Assembly: GCA_903902315.1 (NCBI GenBank)
Contig: CAIUUK010000013.1
Span: forward strand, 1-62,089
Direction: 5' to 3'
From: an uncultured bacterium
GTDB lineage: Bacteria > Patescibacteriota > Minisyncoccia > Phycocordibacterales > PALSA-1337
Length of the DNA stretch: 62,089 bases
In this document: one piece after another, positions 3,883 through 14,991 of the stretch
Layout: every line of letters begins with the position of its first letter
How positions within the stretch are numbered: position 1 is the stretch's first letter
Position numbers and translations under genes: made by a program
The notes under the pieces: generated by a model
The model's input: the letters and a program-made list of their open reading frames with translations, nothing else
What the model was told of the DNA's origin: nothing
The model's database searches: none

Positions 3883-5556
3883 CTAATCTGTGAGTGTAAT
3901 AACGCGTTCGAGTTCTGCAAGGGAAGTGACACCGGCGAGGATTTTTAGAACACCATCTTGTTTCATTGTCAGGATTCCTTGACCTTTTGCTGCATCCCAA
4001 ATCTCGCGTTCACTGGAGCTTTTTTGCACAGCTAATTCAACTTTTTTATTCATTAATATAGCTTCATAAATACCAATACGCCCTTTATAACCAGTGTGGT
4101 TACATTTGTCACAGCCAACTGGTTCCCACATCTTGCTTCTATCTGTAGGAATTACAGACTTATCTTCTATACCATTTACTATTGTTTCTATTTCGTTTTG
4201 GTTTTGTCCATCAAGCATGACTTCTTTTTTACAGTCATTACAAAGACGACGAACGAGACGCTGTGCCATAGAGACACGAAGAGCAGAAGGAATGATTGTT
4301 GGATTTGCACCAAGATCAATCAAACGAGGGAATGTTCCGGCTGCGTCGTTGGTGTGGAGAGTAGAGAAGACGAGGTGACCAGTGAGAGCTGAGTTGATGG
4401 CGATGTTGGCAGTATCACCATCTCGGATTTCACCGACCATGATGATGTCAGGGTCTTGGCGAACTGCAGCACGCAATCCTTCGGCGAAAGTATAACCTTT
4501 GTCATTGACTTGAGTTTGAACAATACCAGGCATGTGATATTCGATAGGGTCTTCGAGTGTAATTATCTTTACTTCTGAATTGTGAACTTTTTGTAGAAAA
4601 GCATACAAGGTTGTAGTTTTACCTGAACCAGTTGGACCAGTCGTGAGAATCATACCGTCCGGACGATTGATTTCTTCATTTAATATTGCAAGCAATTTTG
4701 GATTTATACCCATACTATCGAGAGAGACACGGATTGATCGTGGGTCGAGGAGACGCATGACGATTGATTCATTATAAGCACCTGGGAGAATAGACACACG
4801 AACTTCTATATCACCGGTTGCCAAACGAATACTGAAACGACCATCCTGTGAGTCTTTTTTTATATTTAGCTTCATGCCAGAGATAAGCTTGATACGAGAA
4901 AGTAGAAGCCCGTAAGTCTCAATGTCGATACGCATAAGTTCTTGGAGAACACCATCTAAACGATAACGAAGTAAAATATAACCTTCTTCTGGTTCAAGGT
5001 GCACATCAGATGCTCCGACAGCCAAAGCTCCAGCCACAATTGTTTCTAAAATTCGAGAAACACGATAACTTTTCTTTGCAGACATTGTGTTTCCAAGAAT
5101 AGAAATAACGGTTGGAAGACTTTTGGCTTGATTGATTATTTCTGTGATTTCGTCACTTGAAATTTCAAGTGAACCGGCTCGACTTTCATAAGCGAAAGAC
5201 AGGTCTTTGTACATTTTCCAGGCTTTTTCGAGGCCCTGAGTCGAAGTTATATGGATTTCAGGTTCATAACCTTTCTCTTTTAATCCAGCAACTACATCAG
5301 CGGTTTTCTGATCCTCAGGATTTCTTGCTGCTACTTTTATTTTTTTATTTACCATTGCAAATCCAGCAACCAAAGCGGCTCTGGCGGTTTGTTCATCAAT
5401 CAGACGAAGGGCGTCTGTGTTAACCGGAGTATTTAACAAGTTTACATAATCAACACCGTATTTTGCGGACATGATCTGCACCATCTCCTCTTCCTCTTGA
5501 TGGAGAAGGTTGCCAATTCTTTGCTTCTGCTTGTCTTCATCAAATTGGATAGTCAT
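3883..5556 (-). CDS. pilB: Type IV pilus assembly ATPase PilB (GspE family)
   Basis: GPTGSGKTTTLY Walker A, the GEIRD motif, the TGHLVFSTLHTN His box and a tetracysteine cluster (CNDC...CDKC). The start was set at the MTIQFDEDK Met at 5556. Confidence 0.9.
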   Translation of the reverse strand: MTIQFDEDKQKQRIGNLLHQEEEEMVQIMSAKYGVDYVNLLNTPVNTDALRLIDEQTARAALVAGFAMVNKKIKVAARNPEDQKTADVVAGLKEKGYEPEIHITSTQGLEKAWKMYKDLSFAYESRAGSLEISSDEITEIINQAKSLPTVISILGNTMSAKKSYRVSRILETIVAGALAVGASDVHLEPEEGYILLRYRLDGVLQELMRIDIETYGLLLSRIKLISGMKLNIKKDSQDGRFSIRLATGDIEVRVSILPGAYNESIVMRLLDPRSIRVSLDSMGINPKLLAILNEEINRPDGMILTTGPTGSGKTTTLYAFLQKVHNSEVKIITLEDPIEYHMPGIVQTQVNDKGYTFAEGLRAAVRQDPDIIMVGEIRDGDTANIAINSALTGHLVFSTLHTNDAAGTFPRLIDLGANPTIIPSALRVSMAQRLVRRLCNDCKKEVMLDGQNQNEIETIVNGIEDKSVIPTDRSKMWEPVGCDKCNHTGYKGRIGIYEAILMNKKVELAVQKSSSEREIWDAAKGQGILTMKQDGVLKILAGVTSLAELERVITLTD

Positions 5557-9217: not shown

Positions 9218-9294
9218 AAACAGATATAACTGTGCGGGTTGTGGTACGAAGTTGGAACTATTCTAGCACAAAGCCTATTATGAACATAAGTTAT

Positions 9295-9969
9295 TTATTT
9301 AAGATAATTAATGAAATCTTTACCAAGCTTTGTCAGTCGGTATGACGAGAATCCTCCATCGTAGGTTGCCTCCATGGAACCATTCATTAGGCCGACACTA
9401 TTAAACGTCGAATAGTGTTCAGCGATTTCGTACATTCCGTATGTTTCATTCCTTAACTTCAGAATCATTTCAACTTGGTGTAAATTGAAAAAATTACCTA
9501 ATTTTATATTAGCTGCTCCATCAGGTTGCGACGCAACCCATCTATCAAAAGTTCCGTCAGAATAGATAGAAAGAATGTGCAAATTTTCCTCTGAAAGCTG
9601 ACTAAGAATAAAGTTGAACTTCTCTAGCTCAAATGAACGTTTGTCTTCTGATTTTGTAAATCCACAAAAAATGTCTCGTGCTATTTTTCTTTTATTTTCG
9701 CTTCGCTCGACAATATATTTTTCAAGCATATACACAAATCCGTCTTGAAATTCTTCGGTATTAATAATTTCATCAACAAATATATCAGGTTTGTTTTTAA
9801 CCATTTCGATGAATTCGAGTGCCCTATTTTCTCTAAGTTTCATACCTGCGCCAAATAAAGCCTTACACAAAGCCCAGGCAGCTGCAACACCGGGATGAAT
9901 TGTAGCTGCTATAACATCAGCAGTGCCTAGCGCACTTGCTTTAAGTATTTCCTTATCTACACCGTTCAT
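9295..9969 (-). CDS. Hypothetical protein, 224 aa (element cargo)
   Basis: Clean ORF with its own upstream region. It has a Gly/Ala-rich amphipathic N-terminus (GTADVIAATIHPGVAAAWALCKALFGAG). No family was recognised. Confidence 0.5.
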   Translation of the reverse strand: MNGVDKEILKASALGTADVIAATIHPGVAAAWALCKALFGAGMKLRENRALEFIEMVKNKPDIFVDEIINTEEFQDGFVYMLEKYIVERSENKRKIARDIFCGFTKSEDKRSFELEKFNFILSQLSEENLHILSIYSDGTFDRWVASQPDGAANIKLGNFFNLHQVEMILKLRNETYGMYEIAEHYSTFNSVGLMNGSMEATYDGGFSSYRLTKLGKDFINYLK

Positions 9970-10010
9970 GAAAGTTTGTGGTTACTTTAAGTAATATGTC
10001 ATAGTTTACC

Positions 10011-10044
10011 ATTAAAAAGAACCGCCAGAATTAAATTCTAGCGG
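10011..10044 (-). terminator. Rho-independent terminator of the 10065-11336 gene
   Basis: CCGCCAGAAT / ATTCTAGCGG stem with 9 of 10 bp paired, followed on the reverse strand by TTCTTTTT. Confidence 0.5.
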
Positions 10045-10064
10045 CTCGTGAGAACTAAATGTGA

Positions 10065-11336
10065 TCAATGCCTTGGGAAGGGCTTGCACACTTTCGCTTT
10101 TGCAGCATTGAAGCTGAGGCGAAATTTGTGAACCAATGGCTGTTTGAATGCCACAGGCACCGTAGACAGGTCAACTTTTTTGGGAAGTCGGTCTGTATTC
10201 AGTGTATCCCTCAACCATTGGAAGTAGAGTGGCTTTTGTTTACCAACACTAATTTGCCGACGTTGAGTTGTTTCCGTATCCCACTGTGTTCGGATATAAT
10301 CACCTGTTTTTTCAACGAAGTGAAGACGGATCAAACTTCGCAGAAGTGTGCAACCACAAAAGATTACAATTACACCGACGGCAAACACCACAATCCACAG
10401 TCCTTTATCCTTCCAAAATGCCTCCAAGATTATATCGAGAAGTGTATAAAACAATAGACCAAAGACTGCAATCATCAAAACCGCGGAGCCAGTAATCGGA
10501 TAATATTTTTCTTTTCCGTGTTCACGGTCCCAAACACCGTAGTCGTAACCACGAGTTATATCCCAGTCAACCTGACCAGGATTCCAACTGTGCCAATCCC
10601 AAATGATGTCGAAATCATTGAAGATAGGTTCGGATCGCCAACCAAGGAAGTTTGCCGTCGTTTTTGCTGTGATTAACCAAATGGACGACATTGTTGCCCA
10701 GAGGTATTTTGCAATCACCGCCACAACAAACCAAATAATTGGTTTGAGGCTGAATGCAAAAAACAGCCGTTTTCGGTAGCTGCATTGGTCAGTGGGTTCG
10801 TAACGATGCCAAAGATTAGCCCAGTTCCAGACCCACGATTTCGGTTTCGTTGCAAAGAGTTCTTTTGGTAGACTGATAGTTTTGGTGAAAACCGCAACCA
10901 CATAGCAAGCATCATCTCCATGTTCGAATGATATGCCATGTGTATCGGTATTTCCATTGAGGTCAACATAGTAACAGTAACACCCCGGACGATGTTCCTT
11001 GAGATAGACTTCCATCTTATTCTCGATCACTTGAGAACCGAGACTTGACTTGAGTGCAATGAAAGTCACCGTATGCTTCCCAGCCGAATCGAAACAAATA
11101 AAATCTGAACCGCGGGAAAGCGGAATCAGTTTACGAATTCCATAGCAAGGCTTAGTCTCCGATTCATGCTGGATAATGACCAGAACATGCGTCGGTTGGA
11201 TTTCAGCCAGAGCGTTGTTCACACCGAATTGAATCGGAATGCGTGCAGATTCCAGCACGTCGCTACCACCGTTGAGGATTACTGACAGCTTAGGCTCAGT
11301 AGCCAAAGCACTATTAGTTGTAGTGTTTTTGTTCAT
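10065..11336 (-). CDS. Multi-pass membrane protein with an N-terminal soluble domain, 423 aa (element cargo)
   Basis: The start was set at the MNKNTTTNS Met at 11336, which has AAGGA 8 nt upstream. It has several hydrophobic segments and a Trp-rich loop (DIIWDWHSWNPGQVDWD). No family was recognised. Confidence 0.6.
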   Translation of the reverse strand: MNKNTTTNSALATEPKLSVILNGGSDVLESARIPIQFGVNNALAEIQPTHVLVIIQHESETKPCYGIRKLIPLSRGSDFICFDSAGKHTVTFIALKSSLGSQVIENKMEVYLKEHRPGCYCYYVDLNGNTDTHGISFEHGDDACYVVAVFTKTISLPKELFATKPKSWVWNWANLWHRYEPTDQCSYRKRLFFAFSLKPIIWFVVAVIAKYLWATMSSIWLITAKTTANFLGWRSEPIFNDFDIIWDWHSWNPGQVDWDITRGYDYGVWDREHGKEKYYPITGSAVLMIAVFGLLFYTLLDIILEAFWKDKGLWIVVFAVGVIVIFCGCTLLRSLIRLHFVEKTGDYIRTQWDTETTQRRQISVGKQKPLYFQWLRDTLNTDRLPKKVDLSTVPVAFKQPLVHKFRLSFNAAKAKVCKPFPRH

Positions 11337-11439
11337 AATTATTCCTTTTTCAAATGCTGATATACGATACCAGCTTACAATTTTGCTAAATACTAGCATA
11401 TAATACATAGCTTTGTCAAGTTTGTGCGGTTCAGTCAAG

Positions 11440-11760
11440 TACGTGTCATTTGTGGCTCAATGTGGCTGTATATATGGTTCGTCATTCGCGTCCAAGCGGT
11501 GCATGGTCGCGGTCACGGAAGCGCGGGGATGTCCGCTTCTTCTATAGCGGTTTGTTCGCGCTTAGCGCATATTGACATGATGTAGCGCACACGATTGCGA
11601 AGCAATGGTGGAAAGCGCGAAGTCATGTGGATATGCGCGTTAAAAGCGCGCCACATACTCTCTTGGAAGCGGACATGCAAAGCGCTTCCATTGTCTGTTC
11701 AACACTACAGGATATATACGCGACCACGCTCGGCTTGGCGCGCCACTCACTCAAAATCCC
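11440..11760. other. G+C-rich, hairpin-dense non-coding hub; candidate origin or single-strand origin
   Basis: No credible ORF. There are many AGCGC/GCGCG motifs. Hairpins include GAAGCG...CGCTTC at 11518-11540 and TGGAAGCG...CGCTTCCA at 11664-11690. ATGTCCGCTTC at 11529-11539 is an inverted repeat of GAAGCGGACAT at 11666-11676. Confidence 0.35.
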
Positions 11761-11788
11761 TTGACTTCATTTTAGACAGGAATATAAT
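11761..11788 (+). promoter_or_regulatory. Near-consensus sigma70-type promoter facing the Rep and recombinase genes
   Basis: TTGACT at 11761-11766, a 16-nt spacer, then TATAAT at 11783-11788. Confidence 0.5.
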
Positions 11789-12057
11789 TGTGACAGGTAC
11801 AGAGCTCTCTGATTTGAACTGCACAACTTAATCTAAATAAATTTAATAATAAATAAGTCCTTTTTTAGGCACTAGCAGCATCGGTAGCCATCATTGAATG
11901 GCATCCCTCTTTTTCAAATACCGGCTAGATACATACATAATATAAATAATCATAATAAATATCAGTGCTTTAAAATAGGAACTTCGTAAAAGGGTTCTTT
12001 TTTCGTTTGTTTCTTTTTTGTCCATCTCACAGTCTTTTCCTGTACCTAATTACTTAG

Positions 12058-12279
12058 GTGCCTTTTACATTCTCCAAAAGTTTAATACAAGACTGCATCA
12101 AGAACTTCAAAGAAGAAAATGAGGTCGACATTTCTGCTGAAACAGCCAATGAATATTTGAACAATATGGCTGGTTTGTATTTGGCATTTACGGAAAAGCG
12201 TACCGACCCGACCGCTTTAGCGGTGGGCGGGACGCTTCCGATCGACGGTGACTTAACCCTAGGTGTTAGTAACACCTAG
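12058..12279 (+). CDS. Small hypothetical protein, 73 aa, GTG start
   Basis: ORF-track ORF immediately upstream of Rep. Its stop lies inside the 12257-12281 palindrome. Coding status is uncertain. Confidence 0.3.
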   Translation: MPFTFSKSLIQDCIKNFKEENEVDISAETANEYLNNMAGLYLAFTEKRTDPTALAVGGTLPIDGDLTLGVSNT

Positions 12280-12281
12280 GG
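12257..12281 (+). promoter_or_regulatory. Perfect 12+12 inverted repeat just upstream of Rep; candidate nick-site/double-strand-origin hairpin or terminator
   Basis: CCCTAGGTGTTA g TAACACCTAGGG, 19 nt before the Rep ATG. It is followed by the small palindrome GCAAATTGC at 12288-12296. Confidence 0.4.
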
Positions 12282-12299
12282 TACGTTGCAAATTGCACC

Positions 12300-13343
12300 A
12301 TGATAGACACTATTAAATTCTTAATACCGATGACTGACATCGATCTTGTCGAGCAGTTAAAGAGTAACCTTCAGAGGTTTCGAAAGGATGATCTTCGCAC
12401 TGGCAAAATGGAGTTTGAATTTTTCAGTAGTAATATTGAGCTCGGTTCATATCGTAGGACGGTAGCCATAAAATCGACCAATGTCCCACAAGGATTCTTT
12501 ATTGAATTTTCTGTGCCAAAGTATGCCAAAGGAAATAACGTGGAGATGATATATCCGCATGAGCTTCCAGATATCATAGCGCGACTATACGATGAACTAT
12601 GCACCCACATGAATTACAAACTCCTCCATTATTCAGAGTGGCCAATATATCGTCTGGACGTCTGCTACAACTGGCTTTTCAAGAATGAGAATGAAGCCGT
12701 ATATGCCATGGACTTCTTGAGACGTATCGATTTTCCTCGAAAGAAAAAATACACTTACGACACTTCGGTCATGTTCAAAGGCAGTGTGTACACGGTGAAA
12801 TTCTATGCCAAAGGTTCTGAATTCAAAGCACATGATTTTGACAAGATTGAGCTCAATCGGGCTATGACATTACAGATGTGGGCTGATCGAATAGTTAGAT
12901 TCGAAGTCAATTTGAAAAGGGTTTACCTTCAAGATTTTTTTGGATTGGATACAGTATATTTGAAAGATGTTACTGATGATCAGACCATAGAAGACATATT
13001 GAAATACTTTCTAGAAGAAAAGGTCTTCTTTTACCTCAACGCCAACAGTATGACCGATGAAAACATCAAGCAGATCCTATTCGAGAACTTCACCAAGACC
13101 AAGGCGACTAGACTTTACCAATTTTACAAGGATTATTACTTCAATGAGGAGATGAAAAATATGTTTGTGCGGGGTGGCCTCAACCGAAGTACGATTTATA
13201 GATATTCAAAAGATTTGAAAGAGGTTGGCATAGGTATTTCAATCGAAAAAACATCTAACAATAAAAATATTTTAGAGCAATTGATCATCCCATCACCCAC
13301 TTCCAAATTTGATTTATTTGATTATTCGTTAGGGCAGGTATAA
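12300..13343 (+). CDS. Rolling-circle replication initiator, filamentous-phage gene II / CRI-like
   Basis: MIDTIKFLIPM... N-terminus and RIVRFEVNLKRVYLQDFFGL resemble f1 gene II as I recall it (MIDMLVLRLPF..., GLVRFEARIKTRYLKSFGL). The size is consistent at 347 aa. Confidence 0.6.
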   Translation: MIDTIKFLIPMTDIDLVEQLKSNLQRFRKDDLRTGKMEFEFFSSNIELGSYRRTVAIKSTNVPQGFFIEFSVPKYAKGNNVEMIYPHELPDIIARLYDELCTHMNYKLLHYSEWPIYRLDVCYNWLFKNENEAVYAMDFLRRIDFPRKKKYTYDTSVMFKGSVYTVKFYAKGSEFKAHDFDKIELNRAMTLQMWADRIVRFEVNLKRVYLQDFFGLDTVYLKDVTDDQTIEDILKYFLEEKVFFYLNANSMTDENIKQILFENFTKTKATRLYQFYKDYYFNEEMKNMFVRGGLNRSTIYRYSKDLKEVGIGISIEKTSNNKNILEQLIIPSPTSKFDLFDYSLGQV

Positions 13344-13354
13344 AATTATCCATC

Positions 13355-14842
13355 ATGAAATATATTGCGTACTACAGAAAATCCACAGAAGCAGAAGATA
13401 GACAACTTCTGTCATTGGACTCGCAAGAACGAGAGGCTCTTTCACTTGCTGAAAAACACAATCTACTCATCACCAAAACATTCAAAGAGAGCATGTCTGC
13501 CAAGTCATCTGGTCGTCCTCTATTCAACGAAATGATGAAAATGATTCAATCTGGTAAAGCTGATAGCATTGTCTGCTGGAAACTTGATCGCCTCGCCAGA
13601 AACTTCATTGATGGTGGTCTCATCATTGATCTACTTCAAAGAGGTATCATCAAGGAGATACAGACTTCAGAGGGCGTGCACAAACAAGGTGATGACGTCA
13701 TGCTCATGGCTATCAAATTTGGTATGGCTAATCAATACAGCAGGAATCTAAGCGTCGACGTCAAACGAGGCAACAGAGAAAAGCTATCTCGCGGAGGATG
13801 GCCAAATCGTGCTCCTCTTGGATTCTTAAACGACAAAGCGAACAGGACATTGGTTATTGATCCAACACGCGCAAAATATATACCACGGGCTTTTGAGCTT
13901 TACCTCACTGGCTCTCATGGCTTTAAAGATATTTCAATTATTCTTTACAATGAAGGATTTAGAACCAGAACAGATAAAATTGTCGACAAAAGCTATATTC
14001 AAAGGATTCTTTCATCTATTTTCTACACTGGTATCATGGAACGCGAGGGCAAATTCTATCAAGGTAACCACACGCCACTCATCTCAAAAGAAACATTCGA
14101 AAGGGCTCAGGACGTCATGAATAACCGCTCACATCCGAAACCACAACGACTATTCTTTCCACTTCGTGGATTCATGAAATGTGAAAACTGTGGTTGTGCT
14201 TTAACTGCTTCACTTAAAAAAGGTCATCACTATTACTACTGCACCGGTAATAGAAAAGAATGTGAGGAACACAAAAGCTACATGCGAGAAAATTATCTAT
14301 ATGAAAAAGTATCCGACATTTTTGAGGGGATTGCATTTAGTGAAAGTAAAATTGAACTCATGTATCAAGCCGCCAAGGAAAAGAGTAACAATGATAGCGC
14401 ATACAGTGATCACGTATTACAGAGGCTTCAGACACAGCTAAACTCGCTCAAGACGAAAGAATCTCTCTTACTCGATACTTTCCTCGCTGAACAAATTTCA
14501 AAGGAATTATATGACAGTAAAATGCTTAGACTGCACAATGAGAAAATCGTACTTGAAAAGCAGATTTCAGAAGCCAGATCCAAACAACCAGTCAATGTGT
14601 TGGAACCGACAAAGAAAGTATTTCTAGAAGCCAGTAGAGCCAGGAATGAGTTTCTCACTGGTAATGATCTCAAAAAACGAAATGTTCTAGAAAATCTCTG
14701 TTGGAACCTTTCCATCAAAGAGAAAAATATTCATACAGTTAGCCTCAAAAGTCCTTTTGACCTTATGCTAAAAACACCTAAATACGCCTCTTTCGAACTA
14801 TTGTGCGCCCAGTTGGATTCGAACCAACGACCCACTCCTTAA
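13355..14842 (+). CDS. Large serine recombinase
   Basis: Resolvase-type N-terminus YYRKSTEAEDRQLLSLDSQ...WKLDRLARN, a recombinase domain, and a Cys-rich zinc ribbon CENCGC...YYYC followed by a coiled coil. The last 39 nt overlap tRNA-Lys antisense. Confidence 0.9.
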   Translation: MKYIAYYRKSTEAEDRQLLSLDSQEREALSLAEKHNLLITKTFKESMSAKSSGRPLFNEMMKMIQSGKADSIVCWKLDRLARNFIDGGLIIDLLQRGIIKEIQTSEGVHKQGDDVMLMAIKFGMANQYSRNLSVDVKRGNREKLSRGGWPNRAPLGFLNDKANRTLVIDPTRAKYIPRAFELYLTGSHGFKDISIILYNEGFRTRTDKIVDKSYIQRILSSIFYTGIMEREGKFYQGNHTPLISKETFERAQDVMNNRSHPKPQRLFFPLRGFMKCENCGCALTASLKKGHHYYYCTGNRKECEEHKSYMRENYLYEKVSDIFEGIAFSESKIELMYQAAKEKSNNDSAYSDHVLQRLQTQLNSLKTKESLLLDTFLAEQISKELYDSKMLRLHNEKIVLEKQISEARSKQPVNVLEPTKKVFLEASRARNEFLTGNDLKKRNVLENLCWNLSIKEKNIHTVSLKSPFDLMLKTPKYASFELLCAQLDSNQRPTP

Positions 14843-14876
14843 AAGGGAGTTGCTCTACCAGCTGAGCTATGGGCGC
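14804..14876 (-). tRNA. tRNA-Lys (anticodon TTT)
   Basis: Hand fold: GCGCCCA/TGGGCGC acceptor, GCTC/GAGC D stem, ACTCC/GGAGT anticodon stem with loop CTTTTAA, GTTGG-TTCGAAT-CCAAC T arm. CCA is not encoded. Confidence 0.9.
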
Positions 14877-14904
14877 GAAAACTAATTATTGATACCTACC
14901 AAAA

Positions 14905-14991
14905 CAGCTATGGGCGCAAGCGAGGAAAAATCACGAGCGTCATACGCTCGTAGTTATTCCGAGCGTAGCGCCTATATGGATATATGGGCGC
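14905..14991 (-). repeat. Degenerate copies of the tRNA-Lys 5' end upstream of the tRNA
   Basis: AGCTATGGGCGC at 14906-14917 is identical to 14865-14876. Similarity extends through TGGTAG of the D arm. A third copy, ATGGGCGC, lies at 14984-14991. The hairpin ACGAGCGT-cat-ACGCTCGT lies between them. Confidence 0.6.

Follow-up and report, generated by a model that had tools for sequence, protein, structure and literature searches.

The window analysed here is the whole of contig CAIUUK010000013.1 (62,089 nucleotides, nt) of the uncultured-bacterium assembly GCA_903902315.1, a 0.77-Mb, 97% complete genome of the Patescibacteria or Candidate Phyla Radiation (CPR) type. At the extreme 3' end of its tRNA-Lys(UUU) gene lies an integrative element, an insertion of about 5.57 kb (9237-14801), which carries two reverse-strand genes encoding proteins of 423 and 224 amino acids (aa), here called P0001 and P0002. 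An earlier note on this DNA had read the two genes as one compact unit and as a candidate novel two-gene system. We find that the proposed system does not exist as such, and that the locus as a whole is best explained, with a confidence slightly above even, as a rolling-circle element bearing two separate and unrelated single-gene cassettes, the Abi-alpha-like P0002 and the lone membrane protein P0001.

Both open reading frames (ORFs) stand where the earlier note had placed them (Table 1), and it is their pairing that fails. In the same 300 other genomes of the order, the P0001 profile matched eight and the P0002 profile none. Hidden Markov model searches of the six-frame translations of 17 P0001 loci (245 kb) recovered no P0002 relative, and those of 16 P0002 loci (120 kb) recovered no P0001 relative. 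The closest relative of P0002, with 89% amino-acid and 83% nucleotide identity over the gene only, lies between DUF642 and NYN genes, and its locus holds no P0001 relative. The terminator that the earlier note had marked is present, with an RNA fold of -19.7 kcal/mol (z = -5.4, 0 of 200 shuffles equally stable), but it stands between the two genes, within the supposed unit. The G+C content at third codon positions (GC3) also differs, at 0.443 in the P0001 gene and 0.302 in the P0002 gene, compared with 0.451 for the replication gene (Rep) of the element, 0.50 for its 73-aa gene (orf73) and 0.33 for the host polA. Because the families do not co-occur, a terminator separates the genes and their GC3 values diverge, we read them as two independently acquired cassettes.

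Several observations weigh against this separation. The two genes share a strand and are only 95 nt apart, a promoter scan gave no site for the 224-aa gene, which leaves read-through from the 423-aa gene possible, and P0002 relatives elsewhere come immediately after, and often overlap, a larger gene whose identity varies (SNase, NOV_C, Mod methylase or DUF2188), making a local pairing conceivable. One could thus imagine a modular system in which a winged-helix, Abi-alpha-like sensor or regulator cooperates with an upstream effector that is swapped between loci (a nuclease, a methylase or, here, the 423-aa membrane protein). We consider such cooperation quite improbable, given that the families never meet elsewhere in the genomes and loci searched, that the -19.7 kcal/mol terminator intervenes, that GC3 is 0.44 in one gene and 0.30 in the other, that the 89% relative of P0002 occurs in a different context without a P0001 relative, and that the Enterococcus faecalis Abi-alpha acts as a single gene (PMC6356687).

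The assignment of P0002 to the Abi-alpha family (PF14337, DUF4393) comes mainly from profile comparisons. With hhalign, the P0002 family (alignment A2) scored 80.7% (E = 1.3e-5, 121 columns) against 23 proteins carrying a precomputed PF14337 annotation, 96.8% (E = 2.6e-10, 151 columns) against five Patescibacteria Abi-alpha proteins, and 95.9% against a sub-threshold bridging protein from locus L051. P0002 itself matched Pfam PF14337 with 13.5 bits (E = 0.074) over residues 170-221, and weak matches to the same family were obtained for 4 of 18 P0002-family members (best E = 0.051). Among 300 other Patescibacteria genomes, five encode a PF14337 protein, which exceeds the Pfam cut-off in three and falls just below it in two. 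The AlphaFold2 model (predicted local distance difference test, pLDDT, 77.5; predicted template modelling score 0.66) is all-helical with a C-terminal winged helix, and the Gly/Ala-rich N-terminus described by the earlier note is present and conserved across the family. Moderate support therefore exists for a homology between P0002 and Abi-alpha that appears real but remote, extending over the C-terminal two-thirds, and the earlier statement that neither protein could be recognised now holds for P0001 but no longer wholly for P0002.

Other results count against this assignment. The 13.5 bits lie below the PF14337 gathering score of 29 bits, which by this threshold leaves P0002 outside the Pfam family, PADLOC gave no match for P0002, and the hhalign comparison fell to 47% (E = 1.9e-4) when confined to the three strict Abi-alpha sequences. 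Foldseek searches of the PDB and BFVD, a check that the earlier note had proposed, returned for P0002 generic winged-helix regulators alone (PadR/MarR-type, E about 1e-2), so the protein could instead be a DNA-binding regulator. No match to the P0002-family profile was found among PDB sequences, nor any relative by tblastn against 50,697 phage genomes or by pattern scans of IMG/VR. The subfamily found here comprises 20 clusters, and its one named member belongs to Candidatus Nomurabacteria.

The surroundings of P0002 relatives tie the family to mobile elements and defence-type neighbours. A large serine recombinase is found in 4 of 7 distinct contexts (L008, L010/11, L066 and, as a fragment, L005), and the gene that directly precedes or overlaps a relative encodes an SNase-domain protein (L010-13) or a NOV_C nuclease (L008/9). 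In L061 the relative (3919-4524) overlaps both of its neighbours, a Mod methylase gene on one side and a ResIII helicase gene on the other, within an island that also carries PDDEXK, Mrr and PLD nucleases, and in L060 its neighbours are Dcm/Vsr and a toxin-antitoxin component. The type I system of L049 has a bona fide Abi-alpha gene (1336-2190) set between its hsdM and hsdS, and Abi-alpha-type genes seem to have been inserted repeatedly into restriction-modification operons in Patescibacteria. The earlier note had suggested checking whether homologues of the two proteins co-occur and whether they accompany mobile elements; the first they never do in the other genomes and loci searched, whereas for the P0002 family the second holds.

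Abi-alpha is known as ef2833 of E. faecalis V583 prophage 6, the only member with a known phenotype, which alone aborts podophage infection and brings lysis forward by about 10 min (PMC6356687). By analogy, an abortive-infection role of this kind is probable for P0002. The protein would begin with an amphipathic helical hairpin rich in Gly and Ala, continue as a helical core and finish in the C-terminal winged helix. It would act alone to kill or prematurely lyse the infected cell, and might in this way protect both the element and the host population.

P0001 belongs to a much larger family. A word-indexed search found nine relatives, and an exhaustive profile search at least 1,444 representative clusters at E <= 1e-3, with 1,140 at E <= 1e-10 and 263 at E <= 1e-30; all named records are Patescibacteria (Paceibacterota, Saccharibacteria, Staskawiczbacteria). 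P0001 alone matched nothing in Pfam, PHROGs, PADLOC or NCBIfam, and ten members gave no Pfam match at E <= 0.01. When 62 members were compared with Pfam and PADLOC at E up to 1, only scattered weak matches appeared, mostly to membrane families (DUF2207_C, Tetraspanin, PrgI, SieB). The P0001 profile matched no PDB sequence, and neither tblastn against the 50,697 phage genomes nor IMG/VR pattern scans gave a relative. Neither P0001 nor P0002 corresponds to a housekeeping family.

The start of P0001 is the ATG at 11336, with AAGGA 8 nt upstream. A longer ORF from a TTG (to 11438) is rejected because homologues align from the ATG and the TTG lies upstream of the promoter. This promoter, of the TTGACA type proposed in the earlier note, is confirmed as a consensus match, while the region shows no general enrichment in promoter-like sites, with 23 against an expectation of 17.6. 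No conserved leader or RNA was found upstream of P0001 homologues. The gene would be transcribed from its own promoter and end at its own terminator.

The features of the 423-aa protein listed in the earlier note, a beta-rich N-terminal domain, membrane helices and a Trp-rich stretch (DIIWDWHSWNPGQVDWD, residues 242-258), were all recovered. Hydropathy places helices at about 191-209, 212-231, 283-305 and 312-334, which form two tight hairpins (191-231 and 283-334). Counts of Lys plus Arg across the family come to about 4 ahead of helix 1, to 8.9 in the loop at 232-282 and to 20 in the tail, with fewer than 1 in either short turn. P0001 is thus probably a protein of four membrane helices with both termini inside and all large parts cytoplasmic, a topology under which the Trp-rich loop would be cytoplasmic or interfacial and not exposed. 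AlphaFold2 predicted a beta-rich, beta-sandwich N-terminal domain with pLDDT 70-84 over residues 50-160, in a prediction that predates the deep family alignment.

In alignments of 147 and 62 sequences, Gly86, Cys185, Gly232 and Cys417 are invariant, and Asn22-Gly-Gly24, Arg68, His88, Asp183, Arg190, Trp269, Lys413 and Pro419 nearly so, His88 and Asp183 being 95-96% conserved. Together, His88, Asp183, Cys185 and Cys417 resemble a metal or active site situated at the inner face of the membrane. In the layout that we propose, a cytoplasmic beta-sandwich domain would precede two tight transmembrane (TM) hairpins, joined by the Trp-rich loop and followed by a basic cytoplasmic tail.

P0001 is rare and patchy. 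Its profile hits in the order fall in eight different taxonomic families, it was found in 7 of 400 genomes of the phylum, and overall it is present in about 2-3% of species-level genomes; broken copies with stop codons occur (G045). In the 17 loci it is a lone gene with differing housekeeping neighbours, among them gyrB/pheS, murJ/RNase H, L20/RNase J, murB/secA, murD, alaS, tmRNA-smpB and a GGDEF protein gene. In L046 (7905-9826) the family gene ends 70 nt before the tmRNA gene, and in L042 (7580-9287) it begins about 345 nt past tRNA-Lys. Both positions fit delivery by elements that target small-RNA genes, but over all 17 loci the family genes do not clearly lie nearer to tRNA genes than chance would place them. 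In 4 of 18 loci (L004, L033, L036, L038), a type IV secretion ATPase of the VirD4/VirB4 kind stands within about 7 kb of the P0001 homologue. We dropped a functional link, since we take this to be partly shared synteny of related genomes: at least two of the loci have further synteny in common, so these cases lack independence.

The slot between holA and tRNA-Lys/DoxD holds a P0001-family gene in three genomes, those of the window, L001 and L042. Flanking proteins of the window are closer to L042 (PolA 70%, SpoU 62%, TsaE 58%) than to L001 (62%, 56% and 49%), whereas P0001 identity runs the opposite way, being 52% with L001 and 33% with L042. This incongruence rules out vertical inheritance of the 423-aa gene in the slot and indicates, from the identities, that the gene entered it independently in the three genomes. 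The L001 and L042 slots contain no Rep or recombinase, and the islands share no DNA with the window element beyond the P0001 gene and the tRNA. In L001 (9250-13022) the slot holds the homologue in opposite orientation together with a Fic-domain gene, and a YafQ/RelB toxin-antitoxin pair lies just beyond the tRNA.

Our best guess, a tentative one held with less than even confidence, is that P0001 performs a self-sufficient conflict function at the membrane, either exclusion or abortive infection. We lean towards it because the gene is rare, patchy, horizontally moved and apparently a self-contained transcription unit. A fuller version is rather unlikely in all its parts: an undescribed, Patescibacteria-specific family of single-gene, membrane-anchored proteins against phages or mobile elements, in which two TM hairpins would be linked to a cytoplasmic sensor domain bearing a Cys/His/Asp metal site, and which small rolling-circle/serine-recombinase elements would deliver repeatedly to tRNA sites. 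Against these proposals stand the absence of positive evidence for any P0001 function, the mostly housekeeping neighbours in place of defence islands, a topology taken from hydropathy and charge counts alone, and a weak whole-protein model (pLDDT 60) whose fold search was empty, Foldseek against the PDB returning weak fibronectin-type/monobody matches alone for a model too poor to trust.

Nearly as likely as the conflict function, though still doubtful, is that P0001 is an unremarkable accessory enzyme of the membrane or a factor of the cell envelope, acting for example on a lipid-linked or membrane-proximal substrate, which plays no part in conflict and merely hitch-hikes on the element. The near-invariant His/Asp/Cys/Cys set with conserved Arg and Lys does resemble a catalytic or metal site, several of the housekeeping neighbours serve the cell envelope (murJ, murB, murD, secA, a DedA/VTT protein), and defence databases give no signal. 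This view accounts less readily for a lone gene scattered at 2-3% frequency over many families, in a different position in almost every genome, with a phylogeny incongruent with its flanks in the shared slot and with decaying copies in G045, a pattern typical of dispensable, horizontally moved genes.

Regarding the element itself, its borders were set by comparison with an empty site. In a genome of the same family (G178), the holA stop codon is followed by 25 nt and then by ...CTGTGCGCC, the tRNA-Lys 3' end. After holA the window shows the same CTGTGCG at 9230 and then diverges from the empty site, and TTGTGCG with the remainder of the tRNA reappears at 14801, which delimits the insertion. 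The element ends have only (C/T)TGTGCG in common, no long direct repeats flank the element, and an imperfect inverted repeat (CTTTCGAAC / GTACGAAG) is symmetric about the core, which we read as matching expectation for the attP of a serine recombinase. The sequence thus argues that 9237-14801 is an integrative rolling-circle element placed at the tRNA-Lys(UUU) 3' end by its large serine recombinase, with the qualification that the left border is supported by a 7-nt match and its position. A second TGTGCGCC in a same-genus genome (G249) lies inside holA and was dismissed as a chance match. An Rfam scan of the element matched the tRNA alone, and our literature search found no report on serine-recombinase integrative elements of Patescibacteria. 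At 14896-14917, 20 nt upstream of the tRNA 5' end, the opening 22 nt of tRNA-Lys recur in degenerate form (82% identity), perhaps as the scar left by an earlier rearrangement at this hotspot.

A search with Rep among the 300 same-order genomes yielded three sibling elements, whose Rep identities are 81, 73 and 58%; they were found in G164, G019 and G280 (loci L057, L058 and L059). In each of them orf73 (47-55%) is followed by Rep and the recombinase (54-59%), the order seen in the window. L058 adjoins tRNA-Ser(GGA) and L059 tRNA-Ile(GAU), and no tRNA was detected alongside L057. None of them contains a relative of P0001, P0002 or a 44-aa ORF of the window element (orf44); at the corresponding position they carry a Trypsin_2 protease and a zinc-ribbon protein, or DUF4352 and DUF6941 proteins. 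Since the siblings combine the same core with other cargo, the core is orf73, the gene-II-type Rep and the recombinase, and the 423-aa and 224-aa genes are variable cargo. Together with the empty site, this bears out the earlier description of the two genes as cargo of a tRNA-Lys integrative replicon. Although orf73 has no Pfam match, its constant position in all three siblings marks it as a genuine core gene.

The two genes might alternatively belong to an older, integrase-less island (9237-11422), onto which a 3.4-kb Rep-recombinase element (11429-14801) was later stacked, in which case they would not be cargo of the present element. A third TTGTGCG core at 11422, exactly at the boundary of the two blocks, and the P0001 relatives found in the same tRNA-Lys slot of two genomes without recombinase and Rep speak for such a history. 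We nevertheless judge it unlikely: TGTGCG is a 6-mer with about 1.4 copies expected by chance in the element, and a fourth copy lies inside the Rep ORF; the inverted-repeat symmetry suits the outer pair of junctions; a first insertion leaves no intact attB for a serine recombinase; and the GC3 of the 423-aa gene (0.44) is like that of Rep (0.45) and orf73 (0.50).

The recombinase frame continues through attR and takes roughly its final 13 codons from the antisense of tRNA-Lys. In an excised circle the frame would run into the left end of the element (9237-9285) and stop about 20 codons on, ending in ...FELLCGLWYEVGTILAQSLL. Because the frame crosses attR, the C-terminus would differ between the integrated and circular forms (14788-14842 and 9237-9285, respectively). 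Upstream of orf73, the region 11487-11740 folds as single-stranded DNA (ssDNA) with -82 kcal/mol (z = -6.7, 0 of 100 shuffles equally stable), and this hairpin is a candidate single-strand origin of the rolling-circle element; no nucleotide-level conservation of it was found in the three siblings. The 44-aa ORF at 11891-12025 on the reverse strand is laid out like a coat protein (MDKKETNEKRTLLRSSYFKALIFIMIIYIMYVSSRYLKKRDAIQ), charged at the N-terminus and basic at the C-terminus, with one hydrophobic helix between. It has no counterpart in the three siblings and may be spurious.

Rep shows 24.5% identity to filamentous phage WC36-1, and IMG/VR pattern scans for Rep found nothing. The locus could in principle be a degenerate or minimal inovirus-type prophage, in which the 423-aa protein would serve assembly or adsorption and the 44-aa ORF would encode the coat protein. 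Its gene-II-type Rep, weakly similar to filamentous phage, its size within the inovirus range, the charged-hydrophobic-basic layout of the 44-aa ORF and the long ssDNA hairpin would all agree. The probability that we give to it is nonetheless very low. No element protein matches Zot/pI or a P-loop family in Pfam, PHROGs, PADLOC or NCBIfam; the 423-aa sequence has no GxxxxGK[ST], its family motif SPGxH keeping Gly86 and His88 and not the Walker lysine; it lacks a signal peptide and is predicted to keep its large parts in the cytoplasm; the siblings have neither the 423-aa gene nor orf44; P0001 homologues are lone chromosomal genes without Rep; and the IMG/VR scans and tblastn of phage genomes gave no relative. 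An integrative replicon with two unrelated cargo genes thus remains our preferred description, and its features are collected in Table 1.

Table 1. Features of the integrative element and its target site (window coordinates).
Feature	Coordinates	Strand	Basis or remark
Left junction, attL core CTGTGCG	9230..9236		tRNA-Lys 3'-end remnant, 13 nt past the holA stop codon
P0002, 224-aa protein	9295..9969	-	putative divergent Abi-alpha/DUF4393-like protein; predicted helical, C-terminal winged helix
Intrinsic terminator between both cargo genes	10009..10047	-	13-bp stem from 10047 to 10019, then UUCUUUUU (U-run)
P0001, 423-aa membrane protein	10065..11336	-	member of a large unannotated family
Sigma-70-like promoter of the P0001 gene	11390..11419	-	TTGACA-18-TAGTAT with TG extension, read from 11419 to 11390; 10/12 positions; consensus match alone
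GC-rich long imperfect hairpin	11487..11740		non-coding; inverted repeats I3 and I7
orf73, 73-aa core gene	12058..12279	+	47-55% identical copies directly upstream of Rep in 3/3 siblings
Rolling-circle Rep, filamentous-phage gene II / Phage_CRI type	12300..13343	+	PF05144 1.6e-15; phrog_702 1.5e-28; TIGR01629 2.1e-10
Large serine recombinase	13355..14842	+	PF00239 Resolvase 3e-19; PF07508 Recombinase 4.3e-12; PF13408 Zn_ribbon_recom 2.3e-6; phrog_95 2.3e-79
Right junction core TGTGCG (attR)	14802..14807		at the tRNA-Lys 3' end
tRNA-Lys(UUU)	14803..14876	-	integration target

Patescibacteria account for a large share of bacterial diversity with tiny genomes. They reportedly lack CRISPR-Cas for the most part, and we know of little work that explains how they resist phages and mobile elements. 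Should the reading of P0001 as an anti-phage or anti-element protein be true, its family would be part of the immunity that these bacteria use in place of CRISPR-Cas. The locus is in addition a clean example of a family of very small integrative rolling-circle elements that apparently shuttle variable cargo to tRNA genes, P0002 would represent a sub-threshold branch of the Abi-alpha defence family overlooked by current Pfam and PADLOC annotation, and P0001 stands for an entirely unannotated membrane-protein family, at least 1,400 clusters in size, with what looks like a metal or active site. These leads fall short of a breakthrough, though experiments on the 423-aa family would be a reasonable follow-up.

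Among known systems, Abi-alpha is the closest to P0002. Both are single small helical proteins with apparent homology over the C-terminal two-thirds (80.7-96.8% in hhalign), both are carried by mobile elements, and P0002 relatives occur inside restriction-modification operons as the bona fide Abi-alpha of L049 does. The P0002 family is in contrast shorter (about 200-225 aa compared with about 270-290), forms its own subfamily, and has an N-terminal third that does not align to strict Abi-alpha. For P0001, the single-gene membrane proteins of abortive infection or superinfection exclusion, such as lactococcal AbiZ and SieB of phage P22, offer a working analogy only. They would share with it the character of a lone, mobile and patchy membrane protein with its own promoter and terminator, but there is no sequence or fold similarity (a SieB match in 1 of 62 members, at E = 0.017, is noise), and P0001 is much larger, with a conserved cytoplasmic domain and the near-invariant His/Asp/Cys/Cys residues.

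The core of the element resembles two further groups. With gene II replicons (Phage_CRI, PF05144; TIGR01629 rep_II_X) it shares the Rep family and a hairpin-rich non-coding region as a possible origin, and it differs from them in having no morphogenesis ATPase and, as a candidate coat gene, at most the orf44 that its siblings lack; we regard it as an integrative replicon and not a virus. Like large-serine-recombinase elements (the phiC31, Bxb1 and A118 prophages, and SCCmec with CcrA/B), it has a recombinase with Resolvase, Recombinase and Zn-ribbon domains, inserts site-specifically with a very short core in common and carries variable cargo. Unlike those, it measures only 5.6 kb, it targets tRNA 3' ends, and its recombinase is paired with a filamentous-phage-type rolling-circle Rep instead of phage or conjugation genes.

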